A stretch of 64,000 nt of DNA from Polaromonas sp. (GCA_028291985.1 JAQGNE010000061.1:9713-73712); one strand, 5' to 3'. Positions 4,101-60,048 are shown, numbered from the stretch's first letter. Notes: a model not told the origin generated them from the letters alone. Program-made: numbers and translations.

Positions 4101-5279
4101 CATCTGTTCATGAACGTGCGTGTGGTGGATGACAATGGCCGGCAGATGGGCATGGGCCGCAACATTGGAGCGCTGAAGGCCGAACTGGGCACGCAGGCAA
4201 GAGGTGCATTCCAGGCGCTGGCCGTTTTGAAAGGCGCGACGCCGTCAGGGCCTGTTGATGCCGTCTCTGGTGAGCCAAGCAAGAAAAATGAATCAAATAG
4301 GCCTCTAGCCCAGAACCTGCGAGGGCTAGTAGCTCCTGAAATCGTAGCAAAATCAACATCTGGACCAGCGACCGTCAGCGTACCGAAAGCGCCCGCACGC
4401 TACACCAGCTGGGCCTTCGGGGAGCTGCCCGAACTGATGGAGATACGCAAGGGCAACCAGACGCTGATCGGGTTTCCAGCGCTGATCGACCTGGGATTAG
4501 AGGGTGGTGGCGCCGTCACCATTGAGGTGTTTGACGAGCCGGCGCTTGCCGCGCTGCGTCACCGTACAGGCTTGCGTCGGCTTTTTTCGCTTCAGATCAG
4601 GGAGACGTTGAAGCACCTGGAGAAAAACCTGCCAGAGCTGCAGAAAATGGCGACGCAGTTCATGCTGGTGGGACGCGGCCCGGACAACTCGGGCGGAGGA
4701 ACTCTGGAAGAGCTGCGGGCGCAGATCATCGAGGTCTCACTCGACCGCGCATTTTTAACCGATCCCCTGCCCAGCACTGAGGCCGAATTCAGCAAGCGTG
4801 TGGAAGACGGTCGCGCGCGGCTGACGCTGATCGCGCAGGAAGTGGCGCGTCTCGCGGCTGCGATCCTTGCCGAGCACGCCGTTGCCCAGCGCAAGATCAA
4901 GGAGACGCGTAACGCGGCAGAAGCAGTGACCGACACCGCGCAGCAACTGCAGCGGCTGGTGCCCAAGACATTTTTGACCGCCACGCCTTACGCCCAGCTC
5001 CAGCACTTTCCGCGCTACCTGAAAGCGATTACCTTGCGGCTGGAAAAATGGCGCAGCGACCCCGCCCGAGATACTGCACGCATGGCGGAGGTCAAACCCC
5101 AGGAGCAGCGTTACTGGCGTTTGTTTGCCGAACGCAAGGGCAGGGCAGACGCAAGGATGCAGGAATTTCGCTGGCTGCTGGAAGAACTGCGGGTCAGCCT
5201 CTTTGCGCAAGAGCTAAGGACCCCACAACCAGTTAGCCTGAAGCGACTGGACAAGGTCTGGGCGCAGCTGAGCAGCTAG
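1194..5279 (+). CDS. hrpA: ATP-dependent RNA helicase HrpA
   Basis: GETGSGKTTQLPK, HTQPRRIAA, DEAHERS, SAT, QRAGRCGR motifs; C-terminus ELRVSLFAQEL; 1361 aa. Confidence 0.97.
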   Translation: MKLRRRQPIIESFEPLSLSLQPQHPSSPSRFPSRPVIDFPESLPVSGKRDEITTAIQSHQVVIVCGETGSGKTTQLPKIALAMGRGKLNYPVGQRAKLIGHTQPRRIAASSVAKRIAEELKTPLGEVVGYKVRFQDRLSRDASVKLMTDGILLAETQTDPLLNAYDTLIIDEAHERSLNIDFLLGFVRQLLPRRPDLKVIITSATIDAQRFANYFESAKGPAPVIMVSGRMFPVEQRWRPFEESRDHDLNDAIADAVDELWASPHNAGDILVFLPGEREIREAADHLRKHLAHQPLNRHAEVLPLFARLSQAEQDRIFDGHSGRRVVLATNVAETSLTVPGIRFVIDAGTARVKRYSFRSKVEQLMVEPVSQAAANQRAGRCGRVADGICIRLYDEQDFAGRPRFTDPEILRSSLAAVILRMKALRLGAVEDFAFIEPPQRRAIADGYQLLAELGAVDEQNELTPVGTNLARLPLDPRIGRMILEARDRSSLDEVLVIASALSVQDVRDRPIDKQAQADQQHAKFDDEKSEFSSYLKLWKWLDVSRGGHGTEHKLSNRQYENLLRENYVNIRRVREWRDIHSQLHAVVGEQKWVLNDKPASYEQLHLSMLCGLLGNIGCKSEEAPSAPRPGAERTSSGQGEYLGARGIKFFPHPGAKLSKRPGRWIVAAELVETTRLFGRGIANIDPAWIEQVAGHLLKKQLLDPHWEKKAAQVTALERATLYGLTVYSGRRANFGRVDPAAAREVFIREALVAGNWDTRLPFLAANQKLVGSVQELEHKARRQDVLVDEELIYAFYDQHLPASICSGVGCESWYKEEARRQPKLLFMTQEELMRHEASGITSQAFPRTLRMGGVDCPVAYLHEPGDAKDGLTVDVPLFALNQVNEERCEWLVPGMLKDKVQALLKTLHQRPRSRLVPLPETAARMAEQLNQPQTFGTGSLTDALLKLVRDATSVDVKRGDIKLEMLPPHLFMNVRVVDDNGRQMGMGRNIGALKAELGTQARGAFQALAVLKGATPSGPVDAVSGEPSKKNESNRPLAQNLRGLVAPEIVAKSTSGPATVSVPKAPARYTSWAFGELPELMEIRKGNQTLIGFPALIDLGLEGGGAVTIEVFDEPALAALRHRTGLRRLFSLQIRETLKHLEKNLPELQKMATQFMLVGRGPDNSGGGTLEELRAQIIEVSLDRAFLTDPLPSTEAEFSKRVEDGRARLTLIAQEVARLAAAILAEHAVAQRKIKETRNAAEAVTDTAQQLQRLVPKTFLTATPYAQLQHFPRYLKAITLRLEKWRSDPARDTARMAEVKPQEQRYWRLFAERKGRADARMQEFRWLLEELRVSLFAQELRTPQPVSLKRLDKVWAQLSS
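4295..4349 (+). repeat. 55-bp double-dyad element, copy 1 (in frame within hrpA)
   Basis: AAATAGGCCTCTAGCCC-AGAACCTGCGA-GGGCTAG-TAGCTCCTGAAATCGTAGCA; perfect CTAGCCC/GGGCTAG stem. Confidence 0.85.
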
Positions 5280-20069: not shown

Positions 20070-20093
20070 CGGTCCACCTAATGAAATTTAAGT

Positions 20094-20148
20094 AAAAAAA
20101 GCTCCAGCCCATTGAACATAAGCGTTTATAGCTATCGATTAAGTAGCA
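20094..20148 (+). repeat. 55-bp double-dyad element, copy 2 (intergenic)
   Basis: AAAAAAAGCTCCAGCCC-ATTGAACATAA-GCGTTTA-TAGCTATCGATTAAGTAGCA. Confidence 0.8.
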
Positions 20149-20375
20149 TCAATCAATGTTGCAGCCATGTTAACTGATCAGCTTTCAGCGTAAAAGGATG
20201 TGACCGTCCTTGACGGCCACACGCTTGTCTGGGGAGACTGTCGCCTTCCTGCCACGTCGGCAGCTTCGACATACGTTTTCATTTCGCCTAAACCACACGC
20301 TCACAAATCAGGTTCGTCAACGGAGCGCCCGCCCGGCCGCTCCTGCTGCTCAGGCCGTGCCTGGGCGGGCTGCCG

Positions 20376-25297: not shown

Positions 25298-25346
25298 CCG
25301 GGCCGTGCGGCCCTCGCTCGCCGGGGTGGTCTTCAGACCCACCGTA

Positions 25347-25402
25347 TGCTATTAACATCATAGCTTACAGTCCATGTCTTATAAGGGCTGTAGCCCTACT
25401 TT
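25347..25402 (-). repeat. 55-bp double-dyad element, copy 3 (intergenic, convergent gap)
   Basis: Minus strand AAAGTAGGGCTACAGCCC-TTATAAGACAT-GGACTGT-AAGCTATGATGTTAATAGCA; stem ACAG/CTGT covaries with CTAG/CTAG of copy 1. Confidence 0.85.
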
Positions 25403-25451
25403 TCTTAAAAAACAACGTCAAGACTGTTTTTGGCGGCTCCGGCTTCCAAGC

Positions 25452-29224: not shown

Positions 29225-30362
29225 AGATAGCGGTACCCAGCCGGAGACGGTCGTTGACGGTTTGCCAGCCGGGCAGACGCCTGGCGCGGAGAGACAAAAC
29301 GCGGCTGGCGACGATACACCCGACGCAGCGGCTACCGTCAGTCTCAGCCCCGGCCGCAGAGCCTGGCAGCGCTTTCGGCGCAACAAACTGGGCTTTTCCA
29401 GCCTGGTCATGTTCACGGTTTTGGTGGTGTTCAGCCTGTTTGCGGAAGTGATTTCCAACGACAAGCCATTGGTTGTCAATTACCAGGGCACGTTTTACTT
29501 TCCGCTGGTCAAGGATTATTCCGAAAAGACCTTTGGTGGCGACTTCGACACGCCTGCAGACTACCTCGACCCGTTCATCCGGAGCAGGCTGAACCAGGAC
29601 GATAACTGGGCGCTGTATCCGCCCAATCCTTATGGTCCCAGAACCATCAACTACTTTGCCAAAGAGCCGAACCCGTCCGCACCCTCGCGCGACAACCTGT
29701 TTGGCACCGACGATCGCGGGCGCGACCTGCTGGCGCAACTGATCTACGGCTTTCGCCTGAGCGTGCTGTTCGGCCTGGCCTTGACTGCCATCGGCGTGGT
29801 GATCGGCATTGCCACCGGGGCTATGCAGGGCTATGCCGGTGGCAAAACAGACCTGTTTGTTCAGCGCTTCATGGAAATCTGGGGCGCCATGCCAGAGCTG
29901 TACCTGTTGATCATTTTCAGCGCCATGTTTGCGCCCAGCGTTGGCCTGCTGCTGTTCCTGCTCAGCCTCTTTGGGTGGATGGGCCTGTCGGACTATGTGC
30001 GGGCAGAGTTTCTGCGCAACCGCCAGCTGGACTATGTCCGCGCCGCCAAGGCGCTTGGCGTCAGCAACCTGAGCATCATGCGCCGGCACATTCTGCCCAA
30101 CAGCATGACGCCGGTGGTGACTTTTTTGCCCTTTCGAATGAGTGCAGCGATTCTGGCGCTGACCTCGCTCGATTTTCTGGGGCTGGGTGTGCCGCCGGGT
30201 ACGCCATCGCTTGGCGAGTTGCTGAATCAGGGCAAAGCCAACATTGATGCATGGTGGATTTCGCTGTCAACATTTGCCGTGCTGGTCGTGACCTTGCTTC
30301 TGCTGACCTTTATGGGCGATGCACTGCGCGACGCACTGGATCCGCGAAAGGTCGATGCATGA
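29190..30362 (+). CDS. yejE: Peptide ABC transporter permease YejE (start uncertain)
   Basis: AWQRFRRNKLG, NDKPLVV, GTDDRGRD, EFLRNRQLDYVRAA, LRDALDPR. Confidence 0.9.
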   Translation: MSGWIRVYGLTKDSGTQPETVVDGLPAGQTPGAERQNAAGDDTPDAAATVSLSPGRRAWQRFRRNKLGFSSLVMFTVLVVFSLFAEVISNDKPLVVNYQGTFYFPLVKDYSEKTFGGDFDTPADYLDPFIRSRLNQDDNWALYPPNPYGPRTINYFAKEPNPSAPSRDNLFGTDDRGRDLLAQLIYGFRLSVLFGLALTAIGVVIGIATGAMQGYAGGKTDLFVQRFMEIWGAMPELYLLIIFSAMFAPSVGLLLFLLSLFGWMGLSDYVRAEFLRNRQLDYVRAAKALGVSNLSIMRRHILPNSMTPVVTFLPFRMSAAILALTSLDFLGLGVPPGTPSLGELLNQGKANIDAWWISLSTFAVLVVTLLLLTFMGDALRDALDPRKVDA

Positions 30363-30429: not shown

Positions 30430-32034
30430 ATGAATCAGCCGCTTCTGGAGGTCAGCAACCTGCGCATTTCGTTTGCCGGAAAAGAGGTTGTTCACGGCAT
30501 TGATTTTTCAATCGCACCGGGCGAAAAGCTTGCGCTGGTCGGCGAGTCGGGGTCCGGAAAAACCGTCACGGCCTTAAGCCTGTTGCGGCTGGCGCAGGAT
30601 GCATCCGTCAGCGGAAGTGCGGTCTTTCAGGGTCAGGCCGGCCCGAGCGATTTGCTGGCTCTGTCGGAGCGCCAATTGCGCGGTATTCGCGGCCAGGACA
30701 TCTCGATGATTTTTCAGGAGCCGATGACGGCCCTGAATCCGCTGTTCAGCGTGGGTGATCAGATTGCCGAGGTTTTAGAGCTAAAAACAGGCCTAGCACG
30801 CATATCTGCTTGGAATGAAGCTATTGAATTGCTAGCAAGCACCGGTATTGCAGAACCCGCGCGGCGCGCGCGCTCGTTTCCGCATCAGCTCTCGGGCGGC
30901 CAACGCCAGCGCGCCATGATTGCGATGGCCCTGGCCTGCAAGCCCAGGCTGCTGCTGGCTGACGAGCCCACCACGGCGCTGGATGTCACCGTGCGGAGCC
31001 AGATCCTGGACGTGCTGGCCAACCTGCAGCGGCAAACCGGCATGGCGGTGTTGATGATCACGCATGACCTCAACCTGGTGCGCCGCTTTGCCACACGGGT
31101 GGCCGTGATGGAAAACGGCCATATCGTGGAGCAAGGAACGGTCGACGATGTCTTCCAGCGTCCGCAGCACGCCTACACACGCAAGCTGATCGACAGCACG
31201 CCAACCCGTGACGAGCATGAAGCCCGGCCTGACGCCTCGCTCCCGCCGGTGATGAAAGCCCGGGCGCTTCGCGTCAGCTATCCGGTACGTACGCCCGGCT
31301 TCAAAGGCTGGTTCAAGGCCGGGCAGTTTGTGGCGGTGCAGGATGCCAGCTTTGAGATTCCGGCTGGCCAAACGCTGGGCGTGATCGGCGAATCAGGCTC
31401 TGGCAAGTCCAGTCTTGCACTGGCGGCTTTGGGCTTGCATCCGCACAGCGGCCAGCTTGAAGTTGTCGGCAAGGGCTGGAGCGGCAGCACAGCCGCCAAC
31501 AAGGCCTTGCGACGCGCAGTGCAGGTGGTGTTTCAGGATCCCTTTTCATCGCTGTCGCCACGGATGACGATCGGTGAAATCGTCGGCGAGGGGCTTGATG
31601 TGCATCAGCCGGGGCTTTTGTCTGCCGAGCGCCGTCAGCGCGTCGTACGGGCGCTTTCCGATGTCGGCATGCATCAGACGCTCTTTCCTGGCCTGCTTCA
31701 ACGCTATCCGCATGAGTTTTCAGGCGGGCAGCGTCAGCGGATTGCGATTGCCAGAGCCTTGATCGTTGAACCTCAACTGCTGGTATTGGACGAACCCACC
31801 AGCGCACTTGACGTGACCATCCAAAAGCAGGTTCTGCAATTGCTGCAGCGCTTGCAACGGGAGCGCGGCCTGAGCTATCTGCTGATCACCCACGATGTCG
31901 ATGTGATTCGCGCCATGGCTCACCGGGTGCTGGTGATGAAAAGCGGCAAGGTCATAGAAAGCGGCACTGCGGCAGAGGTGCTGCGATCGCCGCAGCAGGC
32001 CTACACCCGTATCCTTGTGGCTGCTCCGGGCTGA
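30430..32034 (+). CDS. yejF: Peptide ABC transporter ATPase with two NBDs (YejF)
   Basis: Two Walker A (GESGSGKT, GESGSGKS), two LSGGQRQR/FSGGQRQR, two DEPT motifs. Confidence 0.93.
   Translation: MNQPLLEVSNLRISFAGKEVVHGIDFSIAPGEKLALVGESGSGKTVTALSLLRLAQDASVSGSAVFQGQAGPSDLLALSERQLRGIRGQDISMIFQEPMTALNPLFSVGDQIAEVLELKTGLARISAWNEAIELLASTGIAEPARRARSFPHQLSGGQRQRAMIAMALACKPRLLLADEPTTALDVTVRSQILDVLANLQRQTGMAVLMITHDLNLVRRFATRVAVMENGHIVEQGTVDDVFQRPQHAYTRKLIDSTPTRDEHEARPDASLPPVMKARALRVSYPVRTPGFKGWFKAGQFVAVQDASFEIPAGQTLGVIGESGSGKSSLALAALGLHPHSGQLEVVGKGWSGSTAANKALRRAVQVVFQDPFSSLSPRMTIGEIVGEGLDVHQPGLLSAERRQRVVRALSDVGMHQTLFPGLLQRYPHEFSGGQRQRIAIARALIVEPQLLVLDEPTSALDVTIQKQVLQLLQRLQRERGLSYLLITHDVDVIRAMAHRVLVMKSGKVIESGTAAEVLRSPQQAYTRILVAAPG
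30783..30837 (+). repeat. 55-bp double-dyad element, copy 4 (in frame within yejF, degenerate first stem)
   Basis: AAAAACAGGCCTAGCAC-GCATATCTGCT-TGGAATG-AAGCTATTGAATTGCTAGCA; local burst of A/T-ending codons. Confidence 0.65.
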
Positions 32035-38034: not shown

Positions 38035-39063
38035 ATGCCGCCATCCACTGTTTCCCGCCAGAAAATTCAGCGACGTCCCGTTCACGGCGTGCTGCTGCTC
38101 GACAAGCCGCTGGGCTTATCGAGCAACCAGGCGCTGCAAAAGGCAAAGTGGCTGTTGCGCGCTGAAAAAGCTGGCCATACCGGCACGCTGGACCCGCTTG
38201 CAACCGGCGTGTTGCCGCTGTGTTTTGGAGCCGCCACGAAGTTCAGCCAGATGCAACTGGAGGCCGACAAGACCTATGAAGCCCTACTGATCCTGGGCGT
38301 TAAAACCACCACCGCTGACGCCGAGGGCGACGTGATCGAGAGGCGGGCAGTGCCGCCCATCACGCCGGAGTTGCTGGCGGATCTGACGCACCGTTTCACC
38401 GGCCCGCTGAAGCAGGTTCCGCCGATGTACTCCGCGCTGAAGAAGGACGGCAAGGCGCTGTACGAATATGCCAGGGCTGGCCGTGAAGTAGAGCGTGAGG
38501 CACGTCATATCACCGTTTTTAAGCTAAATATGACTTCAGCCCAGGATCCACTTGGGCTGGTAGCTATTAAAATCATAGTGTCATGTAGCAAGGGGACCTA
38601 TATCCGCACGCTCGGTGAAGACATCGGCGAGGCGATCGGTTGCGGCGCGCATTTGGGTTCGCTGCGCCGGATTGAAACCGGCGGCTTTACAGCCAGCCAG
38701 TGCATCAGCCTGGCCGCACTTGAAGCCATGACCGAAGCCGAACGCGATGCCCAGCTGCTACCGCCACAGTCACTGGTATCGGCTTTCCCGGTTGTCACAT
38801 TGGATGCCGACAATGCAGGACGTTTTTTAAGCGGGCTACGCCGCAGGGGCGAAGCCGGCCAGTTTGGCGACGATGCGCCACTGGTGCAGGTTTATGGCTC
38901 TGAGCCACGGGCGTTCCTGGGTTCAGCTCACATCACGGCCAATGAATTGATACCGCAACGTCTACTGAGCCCGGTTGAGGTGCAGGCGATCTGGCAGGCC
39001 GGCATGCAAAACATGCCGCCGGGCCTGCCCGTCTCGCATGCACAGCCCGCCTTGTCGGGCTAG
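38035..39063 (+). CDS. truB: tRNA pseudouridine(55) synthase
   Basis: GVLLLDKP, GHTGTLDPLATG, PMYSALK, CSKGTYIR. Confidence 0.96.
   Translation: MPPSTVSRQKIQRRPVHGVLLLDKPLGLSSNQALQKAKWLLRAEKAGHTGTLDPLATGVLPLCFGAATKFSQMQLEADKTYEALLILGVKTTTADAEGDVIERRAVPPITPELLADLTHRFTGPLKQVPPMYSALKKDGKALYEYARAGREVEREARHITVFKLNMTSAQDPLGLVAIKIIVSCSKGTYIRTLGEDIGEAIGCGAHLGSLRRIETGGFTASQCISLAALEAMTEAERDAQLLPPQSLVSAFPVVTLDADNAGRFLSGLRRRGEAGQFGDDAPLVQVYGSEPRAFLGSAHITANELIPQRLLSPVEVQAIWQAGMQNMPPGLPVSHAQPALSG
38526..38580 (+). repeat. 55-bp double-dyad element, copy 5 (in frame within truB)
   Basis: AAATATGACTTCAGCCC-AGGATCCACTT-GGGCTGG-TAGCTATTAAAATCATAGTG. Confidence 0.87.
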
Positions 39064-40968: not shown

Positions 40969-40994
40969 GTCGTTTTAGCCGGCCATTCTTAACG

Positions 40995-41049
40995 AAATAG
41001 CGCTACAGCCCTTGTAGAGCAAGGGCGAGGTGCTATACAAAAAAGAGCG
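40995..41049 (+). repeat. 55-bp double-dyad element, copy 6 (intergenic, overlaps the typA terminator)
   Basis: AAATAGCGCTACAGCCC-TTGTAGAGCAA-GGGCGAG-GTGCTATACAAAAAAGAGCG. Confidence 0.8.
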
Positions 41050-44383: not shown

Positions 44384-45576
44384 ACACATCCACTTTGCCT
44401 GGCGACAGGTCCGGTGCACCTGACGACATCACCGAGGTCATCGCGGAACGCCGCGGCAACGCCGGGCTGATCACCTTGAACCGGCCCAAGGCATTGAACG
44501 CCCTGAACCTGCCCATGATCCGGGCTCTCACGGCGACGCTCCTTGCATGGCGCGACGACGCTGCCGTGCAGCTGGTGGCGATTAGGGGCACCAACAAAGC
44601 GGGGCGACCTGGCACGCCGGACGCCCTGTTTGGTGGTTTTTGCGCCGGCGGAGACATTCGGTTTTTTCACCAGGCCGCACTGGCCAACGATGCACTGCTG
44701 GAAGCTTTTTTCACCGAAGAGTACACACTTAACTACCTCATACAAACCTACCCGAAGCCCTATATCGCCTTCATGGACGGCGTGGTGATGGGTGGCGGCA
44801 TGGGTTTATGCCAGGGCGAATCGCATTCGGCTCATCGTGCGGGCAAGGTCCGCATCGTGACCGAACACACCAAGATGGCGATGCCCGAAACCAATATCGG
44901 GCTTTTCCCGGATGTCGGCGGCGGTTATTTCTTGAGCCGCTGCCCGGGTCATGCGGGGGAATACCTTGCGCTGACGGGTGAGGCCATCGGCGCACAGGAC
45001 GCCATTGGTTTTGGACTCGCTGACGTCCAAAGACCCGCTGCCTCGCTGCCAGAACTGTGGGATAAGTTAGGTACTCACCGGACTGAGACACAAAATGCCG
45101 CAAACGCATGGGTTGCTACTGAATTCATAGCTGAAGCCCCTGGTACAACCAAGGACACCGGCACGATTGATCAATATTTTGGGCTTTTGCGAGTCAAGCA
45201 TATCGTTGACGCCCTTGAAAAGTCACCCGACCCGTGGGCCGTCAAGATGGGCGCGGTTTTACGCAAGCGCTCCCCGCTCATGCTGCACGTCGCGCTAGAG
45301 CAGATTCGCAGGGCGCGCGGCATGTCCCTGGCGGACAACCTGTGCATGGAGCGCAAGATGGTGCACCAGTGCTTTAACCTGCGCCCGGGAACAGCCAGCG
45401 AAACGGTCGAAGGTATCCGCGCACTGGCGGTTGACAAAGACTACACACCAAAGTGGTCCCCCGGACGTATCGAAGATGTCAAACCCGGCATGGCCGATGC
45501 GTTTTTCGCCAGTCCATGGGCACCCGATGCGCATCCCTTGAAAGACCTGCACGACCCGGGTCAGACGCGTCTATAA
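44380..45576 (+). CDS. 3-hydroxyisobutyryl-CoA hydrolase-like crotonase
   Basis: TLNRPKALNAL, FCAGGD, FFTEEY, GVVMGGGMG, AMPETNIGLFPDVGG, EGIRALAVDKD; GTG start overlapping the DMT stop. Confidence 0.9.
   Translation: MNTSTLPGDRSGAPDDITEVIAERRGNAGLITLNRPKALNALNLPMIRALTATLLAWRDDAAVQLVAIRGTNKAGRPGTPDALFGGFCAGGDIRFFHQAALANDALLEAFFTEEYTLNYLIQTYPKPYIAFMDGVVMGGGMGLCQGESHSAHRAGKVRIVTEHTKMAMPETNIGLFPDVGGGYFLSRCPGHAGEYLALTGEAIGAQDAIGFGLADVQRPAASLPELWDKLGTHRTETQNAANAWVATEFIAEAPGTTKDTGTIDQYFGLLRVKHIVDALEKSPDPWAVKMGAVLRKRSPLMLHVALEQIRRARGMSLADNLCMERKMVHQCFNLRPGTASETVEGIRALAVDKDYTPKWSPGRIEDVKPGMADAFFASPWAPDAHPLKDLHDPGQTRL
45114..45168 (-). repeat. 55-bp double-dyad element, copy 7 (antisense, inside the crotonase ORF)
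   Basis: Minus strand AATCGTGCCGGTGTCCT-TGGTTGTACCA-GGGGCTT-CAGCTATGAATTCAGTAGCA. Confidence 0.75.
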
Positions 45577-52353: not shown

Positions 52354-52605
52354 ATGCGATCGTTGTTTGGGGTCTTGAGTCTTCTCGTGGTGCTGGCGCT
52401 TGTGGGCGCCCTGGTCAAAAAGCAGCTGGCTTCATCGCGCCAGGCCGTGCCGGCTCTTGCGGTTCCCGCCCACGCGGCTGGCAGTGACGCTTCAGCGCCC
52501 GCTGCGGCAACGGTGCGCGAGCAATCCCAGCAGATTCAGCAGCAGTACAAGCAGGCGCTGGAGCAGGCCATGCAGCAACCGCGCGCGGTTCCCGACGAAA
52601 AATAA
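52354..52605 (+). CDS. Small hypothetical protein with N-terminal membrane anchor
   Basis: MRSLFGVLSLLVVLALVGALVKKQL...QQQYKQALEQAMQQPR. Confidence 0.75.
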   Translation: MRSLFGVLSLLVVLALVGALVKKQLASSRQAVPALAVPAHAAGSDASAPAAATVREQSQQIQQQYKQALEQAMQQPRAVPDEK

Positions 52606-52610
52606 GAGTC

Positions 52611-54082
<1,472 letters not shown>

Positions 54083-55612: not shown

Positions 55613-56605
55613 GTGAAAAAGCATATTTACATTTATTCCCCTTCCAGCGCCGTGCGGGACAAAAGTGGCTTCAAGCGGGGCGTGGTGCGTTTGAAGTCCA
55701 TGGGTTATGAGGTTGAGGTCGATCCGGACGCGCTTGCGGTTCATCAGCGATTTGCCGGTACCGACGAGACACGCCTGGCGGCGATTCACCGCGCTGCCGC
55801 TAGCGGCGCCGACATCGCGCTCATCTCGCGCGGTGGATACGGCCTGAGCCGAATCCTTGGCGCCATCAACTACAAGGCAGTGTCCAAGGCCGCAGCTGGC
55901 GGAACCCGGTTTGTGGGCTTCAGTGATTTCACTGCGTTGCAGCTGGCACTGCTGGCCAAGACTGGGGCGACAAGCTGGGCCGGCCCTGCGCTGGCGGAGG
56001 ACCTGGGTGCAGAAGACGGGCCGGACGACATCATGCAGGCCTGCTTTGAGGACCTGGTGTCAGGTCAGGCAGAAGGCACCGGCTGGCGCCTGCCCAAGAT
56101 TCGCGCGATGACGCCAACCGACAACGGCAAAACTTCAGTTGATGCTAGTTTTTCGATAGCAAAAACCGCAGCAGCGACAAGACGAACCGGCGATTTTCAG
56201 GTCAAAAATGCAACCTTGTGGGGTGGCAGCCTGGCGATGCTGTCCTCTCTGGTCGGCACGCCTTATTTGCCGGCAGTCAAAGGTGGCATTCTGTTTTTGG
56301 AAGATGTGGCTGAGCATCCCTACCGCGTTGAACGCATGTTGACCCAATTGCTGCATGCCGGTGTGCTCGCGCAGCAAAAAGCAATCATCTTCGGCCAGTT
56401 CACGCATTACAAATTGCAACCACATGACAAGGGTTTCAAGATGAGCAGTGTCGTGGAATGGCTACAACAGCGGGTGAAGGCCAGGGTATTAACAGGCCTT
56501 CCGTTCGGTCATGTGCCAACCAAGGTCCTGCTTCCGGTAGGCGCTACCGTCAGCCTGGTGGTTGAAGAACGTGACGCCTTTGTACTGTGGGGTCATCAGC
56601 ACTAG
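55613..56605 (+). CDS. ldcA: Muramoyltetrapeptide LD-carboxypeptidase (S66)
   Basis: SPSS, SRGGYG, GFSDFTA, LWGGSL, FLEDVAEHPYRVERML, FGHV. Confidence 0.93.
   Translation: MKKHIYIYSPSSAVRDKSGFKRGVVRLKSMGYEVEVDPDALAVHQRFAGTDETRLAAIHRAAASGADIALISRGGYGLSRILGAINYKAVSKAAAGGTRFVGFSDFTALQLALLAKTGATSWAGPALAEDLGAEDGPDDIMQACFEDLVSGQAEGTGWRLPKIRAMTPTDNGKTSVDASFSIAKTAAATRRTGDFQVKNATLWGGSLAMLSSLVGTPYLPAVKGGILFLEDVAEHPYRVERMLTQLLHAGVLAQQKAIIFGQFTHYKLQPHDKGFKMSSVVEWLQQRVKARVLTGLPFGHVPTKVLLPVGATVSLVVEERDAFVLWGHQH
56143..56197 (-). repeat. 55-bp double-dyad element, copy 9 (antisense, degenerate, inside ldcA)
   Basis: Minus strand AAAATCGCCGGTTCGTC-TTGTCGCTGCT-GCGGTTT-TTGCTATCGAAAAACTAGCA; head and tail in the same register as other copies. 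Confidence 0.55.
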
Positions 56606-59759: not shown

Positions 59760-59905
59760 TGCGGTGACGGGAAAGCCGGTGGTCTGCGGGTGGTAATAGC
59801 TGGCGGGAGGGCTGCTACATGTCGCCGGACCGTTACCGCTAACCGCCTATCTCTGATCGTTGACCGCTACGTGCTACGCGAAACCCTGAGGTACGAAGCT
59901 GTGAC

Positions 59906-59960
59906 TGCTATGCATTAGATAGCTATAGGCCCTTGCGTTCAATGGGCTACAGCCACTTTT
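59906..59960 (-). repeat. 55-bp double-dyad element, copy 10 (intergenic, convergent gap)
   Basis: Minus strand AAAAGTGGCTGTAGCCC-ATTGAACGCAA-GGGCCTA-TAGCTATCTAATGCATAGCA. Confidence 0.87.
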
Positions 59961-60048
59961 TCTGTAAATTTCATCGGTATGGATCGTCAGCCGGGGTTAG
60001 CGGTCGACATCATCCGGTCTGCTGCGCTGTCCGCAGGCGAGATGGCGA

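Follow-up and report, generated by a model that had tools for sequence, protein, structure and literature searches.

A decayed copy of a genome-wide repeat within the codons of a yejF-like gene of Polaromonas

A 64,000-nt stretch of DNA from Polaromonas sp. (GCA_028291985.1, JAQGNE010000061.1:9713-73712; hereafter the window) contains a yejF-like gene in which a short run of codons departs abruptly from the GC-rich usage around it and resembles a repeat dispersed through the genome. The locus raises the question of how such a repeat comes to lie within an intact coding sequence: by insertion, by displacement of just as much coding DNA, or by evolution at the site itself, with selection acting on the DNA motif. 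A preliminary description of the sequence had proposed the second and third of these routes. The analysis reported here identifies positions 30774-30837 as a real copy, though a decayed one, of an old repeat of ~65 nt that occurs throughout the genome. The yejF site is orthologous and conserved over species and genera, and its conservation follows the information profile of the element. With moderate confidence, we explain the stretch as a duplex-DNA recognition motif kept in place by a putative trans-acting factor.

The repeat copy and its codons

The repeat is built from T/A-rich arms, a TAGCCC box that forms the 5' arm of a first dyad (dyad 1), and a second dyad (dyad 2) of the form GCTAT-N7-ATAGC. 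Its 70-nt family consensus, derived from 143 seeds with the yejF copy excluded, reads tTTT.agt.AAAtagGcCTcTAGCCCA.ta.atacaAGGGcTt.TAGCTATtaATt.aATAGCAaa. Searches of the 3.58-Mb genome with nhmmer recover 383 copies at E<1e-3, rising to 424 at E<0.01, or about one copy every 8-9 kb. The looser pattern AGCTAT-N8-TAGCA leaves free the base preceding TAGCA, which is A or G in most family copies; it matches 175 genomic sites exactly, while the reversed control pattern matches 0. In the window, AGCTAT-N7-CTAGCA with at most one mismatch occurs six times versus 0.08 expected. The gene and the parts of the repeat copy within it are as follows.

30430-32034, + strand: gene for a YejF-like fused double ATP-binding cassette (ABC) ATPase, 534 amino acids from the ATG at 30430, taken from the list of open reading frames (ORFs) and their translation
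30774-30837, + strand: embedded decayed repeat copy, from the last base of codon 115 through codon 136 (LELKTGLARISAWNEAIELLA); +19.8 bits with the fixed-register matrix
30774-30788, + strand: 5' T/A-rich arm TTTAGAGCTAAAAAC (family consensus tTTT.agt.AAAta), with positive matrix contributions at TTT, AG and AAAAA
30794-30799, + strand: TAGCAC box (consensus TAGCCC, 5' arm of dyad 1), in the register of the 143 seeds
30819-30824, + strand: left arm of dyad 2, AGCTAT, drawn from GAA GCT ATT; exact match
30825-30831, + strand: 7-nt spacer TGAATTG, variable in the family and the place where synonymous variation among orthologues falls
30832-30837, + strand: right arm of dyad 2, CTAGCA, drawn from CTA GCA (consensus ATAGCA); exact CTAGCA

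The sequence, codons and coordinates of the segment had been described exactly: codons 116-136 of ORF 30430-32034 read TTA GAG CTA AAA ACA GGC CTA GCA CGC ATA TCT GCT TGG AAT GAA GCT ATT GAA TTG CTA GCA. The accompanying claim of an abrupt island of A/T-ending codons in a gene rich in GC at third codon positions (GC3) is equally sound. At positions 115-135, 16 of 21 codons end in A or T, which is the gene maximum (next best 12), and 15 of the 21 codons counted from 118 do so at a rest-of-gene rate of 0.28 (P=5e-5). CTA accounts for three of the five Leu codons in the segment versus 2.2% genome-wide (P=1e-4).

The proposed match to the element in a common register also holds. The dyad is exact (AGCTAT-N7-CTAGCA at 30819-30837), TAGCAC is one mismatch from TAGCCC, and register 0 is the best among 13 shifts (+/-6). 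The matrix score divides into +22.8 for the dyad and -2.6 for the upstream part, where background is -45. The 45 nt 5' of the dyad, at -2.6 bits where genome positions average -45 +/- 12.6, fall within the top 0.05% of them and exceed their own shuffles (p=0.0025). The first 22 nt of the copy are identical in the closest relative, L073. The peptide G-L-A plus x-A-I-x-L-L-A supplies seven of the eleven fixed dyad bases, and about four synonymous changes complete the dyad; the remaining four bases require codons with a joint usage of ~1e-5.

Taken by itself, the copy lies at the margin of detection. A local hidden Markov model (HMM) aligns the dyad alone, at 8.8 bits with a genome-wide E=4.9, and the dyad 1 pairing (GCCC...GGGC) fails, with the 3' arm GGGC absent. 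The preliminary description had named a background-level model score as the outcome that would speak against its proposal. On that point this copy alone is borderline, whereas orthologous copies score clearly; lying at the same codons, they settle its status as a member of the family.

Conservation of the site across orthologues and genomes

The orthologue sets comprised 29 same-genus sequences (70-79% amino acid identity), four from the nearest metagenome relatives (82-86%) and 29 from a family-level search. The fixed-register matrix is positive in 18 of the 29 same-genus orthologues (+9 to +48) and at background in the other 11 (-28 to -76). Three of them (L004, L008 and L006) reach 47-48, values that true copies also show, and the states are graded over the family, from +48 down via -7, -12, -24 and -28 to background. 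An nhmmer profile trained only on the other copies of this genome, with yejF excluded, detects 14 of the orthologous sites, at 15.5-29.6 bits and E-values of 1e-7 to 3e-3. TAGCCC is intact in L003, L006, L010, L026, L036, L039 and L063, and the GCCC...GGGC pairing in L004, L005 and L008. All four nearest metagenome relatives have GCTAT-TAAATTr-CTAGCA. In the family-level set of 29, the dyad appears in 10 orthologues, of which nine belong to other genera. Orthologues and genomes with the site in yejF are referred to below as carriers.

Codon choice in carriers tracks the motif. Gene GC3 ranges from 0.67 to 0.86 among the orthologues, and the segment is the lowest-GC3 window of the gene (mean of 28 orthologues). 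CTA is used at Leu118 in 10 of 17 carriers, at Leu122 in 7 of 12 and at Leu135 in 13 of 17 (77%), versus 0.9% elsewhere in carrier genes; GCT is used at Ala131 in all 17 carrier orthologues versus a usage of 8.9% elsewhere in the gene. Since codon bias alone yields ~0.55, plain identity of codons or third bases is uninformative, and a rare-codon measure was used in its place. By this measure, same-residue pairs with an identical rare codon make up 20.5% in the segment versus 0.7% in the rest of the gene. Third-position conservation correlates with the information content of the element in carriers (rho 0.57, p 0.004) and shows no correlation in non-carriers. Synonymous variation among orthologues (ATT/ATC, TTG/TTA) sits in the 7-nt variable spacer, matching the family profile. 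Furthermore, Leu135 is replaced by Ile (ATA) in three genera, which restores the consensus arm ATAGCA.

The protein itself bears no trace of an acquired block. No indels occur in the segment among 63 orthologues. E. coli YejF aligns ungapped over it with the same length of 27 residues, and the E. coli K-12 segment quoted in the preliminary description (EVLSLHRGMRREAARGEILNCLDRVGI) was verified as a gap-free alignment of equal length. Segment peptide identity is 0.48 between carriers and non-carriers and 0.51 among non-carriers. The pattern LKxGL...AW..A(I/V)xLLAxTGI is common to carriers, non-carriers and outgroups and recurs in outline in E. coli and M. tuberculosis, to which A(I/V)xLL..(V/T)GI extends; the ancestral Ala-Trp is kept in the copy of this genome, as in non-carriers and other genera. 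Because the pattern is shared so widely, the segment peptide is, as judged from these alignments, older than the DNA motif. The lack of indels together with a continuous ancestral peptide speaks against both an insertion and, in this genome, a recent block replacement by foreign sequence.

Of the two routes proposed at the outset, the data favour the motif held in place over the block overwrite. Replacement of an equal coding length is unsupported in this genome, given the ancestral peptide and a state common to many species and genera. Evolution in place, with the DNA motif as the object of selection, is favoured by the rare codons conserved at informative positions, by the L135I change that improves the dyad, and by loss of the copy along with the family of a genome.

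A gene tree built with the segment masked implies at least 12 changes of state, at least five of them forced by well-supported branches, with a direction that is not readable. Non-carriers are found nested among carriers, and neither the outgroups nor the two basal rows have the site. Losses of the yejF site are clearly frequent. There are also gains, or else short-tract recombination among alleles, as one derived clade (L004-L008) has come to match the motif better than its relatives, with GCCC...GGGC completed via residue changes.

The state of the site follows the abundance of the family in the genome. Among same-genus genomes, carriers hold 41-373 exact dyads each, and all genomes with 0-7 are non-carriers. 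The genomes counted as free of the family were G001, G002, G013, G027, G032, G204 and G210. Across 59 genomes, the median number of exact dyads falls from 90 in carriers to 7 in non-carriers; without correction for phylogeny, p is 1.5e-6 by the Mann-Whitney test and 3.5e-7 by Fisher's test. Only one carrier (G190) has as few as one exact dyad, but its 118 core dyads, versus 21 control matches, show that it contains a dialect of the repeat family. Where a genome has lost the family, the yejF site decays to ordinary GC-rich codons.

A separate observation comes from a 3.1-Mb genome of the same family of organisms (G204), in which the core dyad GCTAT-N8-TAGC has 0 matches versus 11 for the reversed control. 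This zero count may reflect avoidance, beyond mere absence.

A recognition motif and its rivals

The behaviour of the family as a whole bears on what keeps the yejF copy in place. By crude gene calls, 217 copies are intergenic, 76 straddle the end of a gene and 93 are intragenic (total 386). Copies are thus depleted in genes (24% inside versus 82% of the genome coding), and those inside occur in both orientations (50 sense, 43 antisense). Spacers between convergent genes are enriched (61 convergent versus 36 divergent). Copies are single, with two pairs closer than 300 nt. Near-identical copies were not found: the closest pair among 378 is 0.8 identical at 30 variable positions, so the family is not recently mobile. 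On contigs of at least 30 kb in this genome (G000), copies are also spaced more evenly than random, with an inter-copy coefficient of variation (CV) of 0.71 versus 0.93 +/- 0.045 and 12 gaps shorter than 1 kb versus 29 expected; this evenness arises in part because copies occupy separate intergenic regions.

Neither structure nor orientation distinguishes the copies. As RNA or single strands, yejF copies are no more stable than their shuffles (z +0.25 to +0.76), whereas moderate stability is seen for intergenic copies (z -1.7 and -2.2). No compensatory covariation was found in the dyad arms, whose positions are nearly invariant, and wobble asymmetry is inconsistent between dyad 1 and dyad 2. 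No strand bias relative to transcription was found (63 co-oriented, 52 anti-oriented), nor a bias of copy orientation relative to GC skew (127:102). The lack of a folding excess, of covariation and of a transcription or replication bias points to duplex recognition by a putative trans-acting factor.

According to this explanation, non-preferred synonymous codons (TTA, CTA, AAA, GCT and GCA) and a few conservative residues would spell the motif, leaving protein length and helix pattern unchanged. A lineage-specific putative factor would recognize the motif as duplex DNA, and the motif would be kept for that reason. The yejF copy would be one of about 80 in-gene sites that arise where the local peptide can encode the motif, and the same force would keep it as keeps the other ~400 sites. 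The preference for a recognition site over transposition, already voiced in the preliminary description, fits the absence of near-identical copies, of length polymorphism and of folding in yejF.

Several points weigh against this explanation. Within the gene, positions outside the segment are not fully saturated (identical-codon fraction 0.54 versus 0.46 under a permutation null), and the cross-orthologue statistics ignore kinship. Because the same matrix contributed to the assignment of carriers, some of the tests contain a degree of circularity; with assignment by the dyad alone, carriers and non-carriers remain distinct in the upstream half. Six family-rich genomes (79-302 exact dyads) are without the yejF copy, which indicates that the individual yejF site is dispensable and that turnover is common. 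The copy of this genome is in a weak state, with TAGCAC for TAGCCC, the 3' arm of dyad 1 missing and CTAGCA as the right arm, and it may already be decaying. A binding factor was not found among the two candidate genes tested, one Y1-transposase-like and one encoding an HNH nuclease. Finally, functional selection is not distinguishable here from recombination-based drive.

Such a drive, of a recombination or uptake type, is the main rival and would give much the same pattern. Motif-bearing DNA would be favoured in transfer or repair, either through an uptake bias like that of the uptake signal sequences (USS) and DNA uptake sequences (DUS) or through biased gene conversion, and short homologous tracts with the motif would replace motif-free alleles at unchanged length. 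We consider this account unlikely. It accords with indel-free, in-place copies within genes in both orientations, with the graded states from +48 to background, and with sister lineages in opposite states (L002/L003, L036/L037, L043/L047 and L013/L019). The derived clade L004-L008, which outscores its relatives and completed GCCC...GGGC by residue changes, points the same way, as does the even spacing (CV 0.71 versus 0.93), although the latter stems partly from copies in separate intergenic regions. However, USS and DUS differ from this motif, which is a bipartite sequence of ~60 nt found about every 8-9 kb and under-represented in genes.

A mobile-element relic is a weaker proposition and, in our assessment, improbable. 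An in-frame integration resembling a miniature inverted-repeat transposable element (MITE), a repetitive extragenic palindrome (REP) or a Rickettsia palindromic element (RPE) would have displaced an equal length of yejF and would now be decaying by shared ancestry. The family does consist of dispersed palindromes that favour convergent spacers (61 versus 36 divergent), the site is missing from outgroups and from the two family members that branch most basally, and a Y1-transposase-like gene with a copy ~120 nt upstream is present in this genome. Nevertheless, no length difference is seen in 63 orthologues, the peptide is continuous with that of non-carriers and distant homologues, and near-identical copies were not found. 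Rare codons have been kept over lineages in which other synonymous sites are largely randomized. The Y1 gene is also present in element-free genomes of the genus, and relatives do not preserve its position beside a copy.

That gene (G000 C48:33982-34680, L066) encodes 233 amino acids and matches PF01797 at 30 bits. It is single-copy in 40 of 41 genus genomes, element-free ones included, and this IS200/Y1-transposase-like gene has the look of a domesticated housekeeping gene rather than a mobile one. Its role as a REP-associated tyrosine transposase (RAYT) of the family was rejected, as it does not track the family and the adjacent copy is absent in relatives. The HNH nuclease gene (C54:15578-15916, L077; 113 amino acids) was likewise rejected as a trans-acting factor, being present in only 13 of 41 genus genomes with no tracking of the family. 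In this genome it lies between two repeat copies that share one orientation.

Less probable still is an RNA or translational feature of yejF, either a rare-codon pause or an mRNA hairpin, with a coincidental likeness to the repeat. The rare-codon cluster does fall at a subdomain boundary and the copy is in sense orientation. Against this stand RNA folding no better than shuffles, specific bases that match in the family register, a site state that follows genome-wide family abundance, and the overlap of 41 of 87 islands of codons ending in A or T (A/T3 islands) with family copies in both orientations. Chance resemblance in a variable, A/T-tolerant helix, which the background-level local HMM score in this genome and the seven of eleven dyad bases given by A-I-x-L-L-A might suggest, is refuted by the orthologue data, with the same state in more than 30 lineages, and is further opposed by the joint codon usage of the other four bases and by the upstream register.

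Returning to a recognition motif kept by a trans-acting factor, a broader proposition may be drawn from it. A bipartite genomic recognition signal as long as ~60 nt, served by a putative reader, may have been written into genes through synonymous and conservative recoding and preserved there among genera of the Polaromonas/Rhodoferax group; we put this forward as quite plausible, short of calling it probable. If true, it would constitute a second layer of information over the genetic code, with a reader that might serve, for example, chromosome organization, self-marking or DNA uptake. Loss of the reading system would let hundreds of sites, yejF included, decay together. Dispersed bacterial repeats are usually regarded as intergenic, either as structural RNA or DNA hairpins or as mobile relics. 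The yejF copy is a clear counter-example to the intergenic view, as it occupies a defined orthologous position in a well-understood protein. Its rare codons would have been long kept only for spelling the repeat, and at least one residue change (L135I) would serve the DNA motif. Codon-usage islands, 41 of 87 in this genome, can accordingly be DNA signals and need not denote horizontal transfer or translational pausing.

Genomic setting and known systems

The operon in the window is of the yejABEF type, with yejB/yejE-like permease genes upstream of the ORF and rimP-nusA downstream. An alternative upstream start lies at 30319. The top NCBIfam match of the ORF is YejF at 588.7 bits, and the product is named YejF-like because this score is under the equivalog cut-off of 834; the fused double ABC ATPase architecture and the operon context fit YejF, the ATPase of a microcin C/oligopeptide ABC transporter. 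Identity to E. coli K-12 YejF is 48% over the full length. Alignment to the solved structure of M. tuberculosis Rv1281c (PDB 8j5q) places the segment in the helical subdomain, with the Q-loop (FQEP) on one side and the LSGGQ signature on the other.

Two same-genus orthologues, L034 (G031:C21) and L035 (G007:C277), have an expansion of ~40 low-complexity residues rich in Ala, Gly, Ser, Pro and Val in the YejF interdomain linker. These extra residues were considered as a repeat copy and rejected; they belong to an unrelated low-complexity linker joining both ATPase halves. In L004, L005, L006 and L008, an inverted repeat copy adjoins the yejF stop (TAG or TGA, with GCTAT 2-5 nt on), and yejF is without rimP-nusA downstream. 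Synteny downstream of yejF differs in genomes with an intergenic copy there, which leaves no comparison of filled and empty sites.

Other copies in the window were located with nhmmer at 48.5 to 18.2 bits.

59904-59968, - strand: well-preserved reference copy of the family
52604-52663, + strand: repeat copy
20093-20150, + strand: repeat copy
38517-38578, + strand: repeat copy, in truB
25343-25409, - strand: repeat copy
4289-4334, + strand: repeat copy
45112-45176, - strand: repeat copy
40986-41026, + strand: repeat copy

At the gathering threshold, Rfam returns one tRNA only in the window and no family covering the repeat. A second A/T3 island of 16 in 21 codons lies in a predicted gene at 56123-56186 (G000 C66:65835-65898) and coincides with a one-mismatch dyad, TGCTATCGAAAAACTAGCA, at 56143-56161 on the - strand. 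Missed by nhmmer as the yejF copy is, it is probably another decayed in-gene copy. Comparable islands in the genes of this genome number 87, and the 41 noted above overlap recognized family copies.

Among known systems, the USS of Pasteurellaceae and the DUS of Neisseriaceae share many features with the repeat. They are dispersed, present in both orientations and often placed in genes through indel-free substitution; they constrain codon choice and sometimes residues, form dialects across related genera, and consist of old copies that were not recently transposed. Their cores measure 9-12 nt and recur roughly once per kb. In contrast, the Polaromonas motif spans ~60 nt, combines a box and a dyad at fixed spacing, occurs once per 8-9 kb and is enriched in intergenic regions.

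The REP sequences, together with bacterial interspersed mosaic elements (BIMEs) and REP doublets forming hairpins (REPINs) with RAYT transposases, offer a second parallel. These too comprise hundreds of short imperfect palindromes at gene ends and in convergent spacers, with divergence at unconstrained positions, and the intergenic copies of the Polaromonas repeat fold moderately well, as theirs do. Unlike REP and REPIN sequences, about a quarter of the copies lie in genes over codons, and copies are single rather than paired, with no compensatory covariation. In place of a stable extragenic stem-loop, the yejF copy is intragenic and shows no excess folding, and the sole Y1-transposase-like gene does not track the family as a cognate RAYT would.

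The RPEs resemble the repeat in being dispersed palindromes situated in frame within intact, functional genes. Ogata et al. reportedly described them as insertions that add residues. The yejF copy differs from these and from an in-frame MITE in the absence of any length change in 63 orthologues and in its ancestral peptide. Near-identical copies of the MITE kind were not found (closest pair 0.8), and no dedicated search was made for target-site duplications.

In the literature searched, the family appears to be represented only as a statistical motif, with codon overlay and conservation undescribed. The 'BRE' repeat (Hot et al. 2011, PMC3110155) is a different element, GC-rich, ~90 bp long and tandem. 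The closest counterpart is ATAGCT(N)22CAAAAG in Polaromonas naphthalenivorans CJ2, an unexplained statistical motif pair with 125 copies, of which 101 are intergenic, 18 lie in genes and 34 lie between convergent genes (Tong, Schliekelman and Mrazek 2017, PMC5217627). Its distal half is CAAAAG, whereas CTnnAG is found here, and neither codon overlay nor cross-species conservation was described for it. Even so, ATAGCT is the complement of the AGCTAT arm, and with two mismatches allowed the spaced motif falls on three family copies in the window in the same register. The CJ2 motif and the repeat described here are likely the same family.

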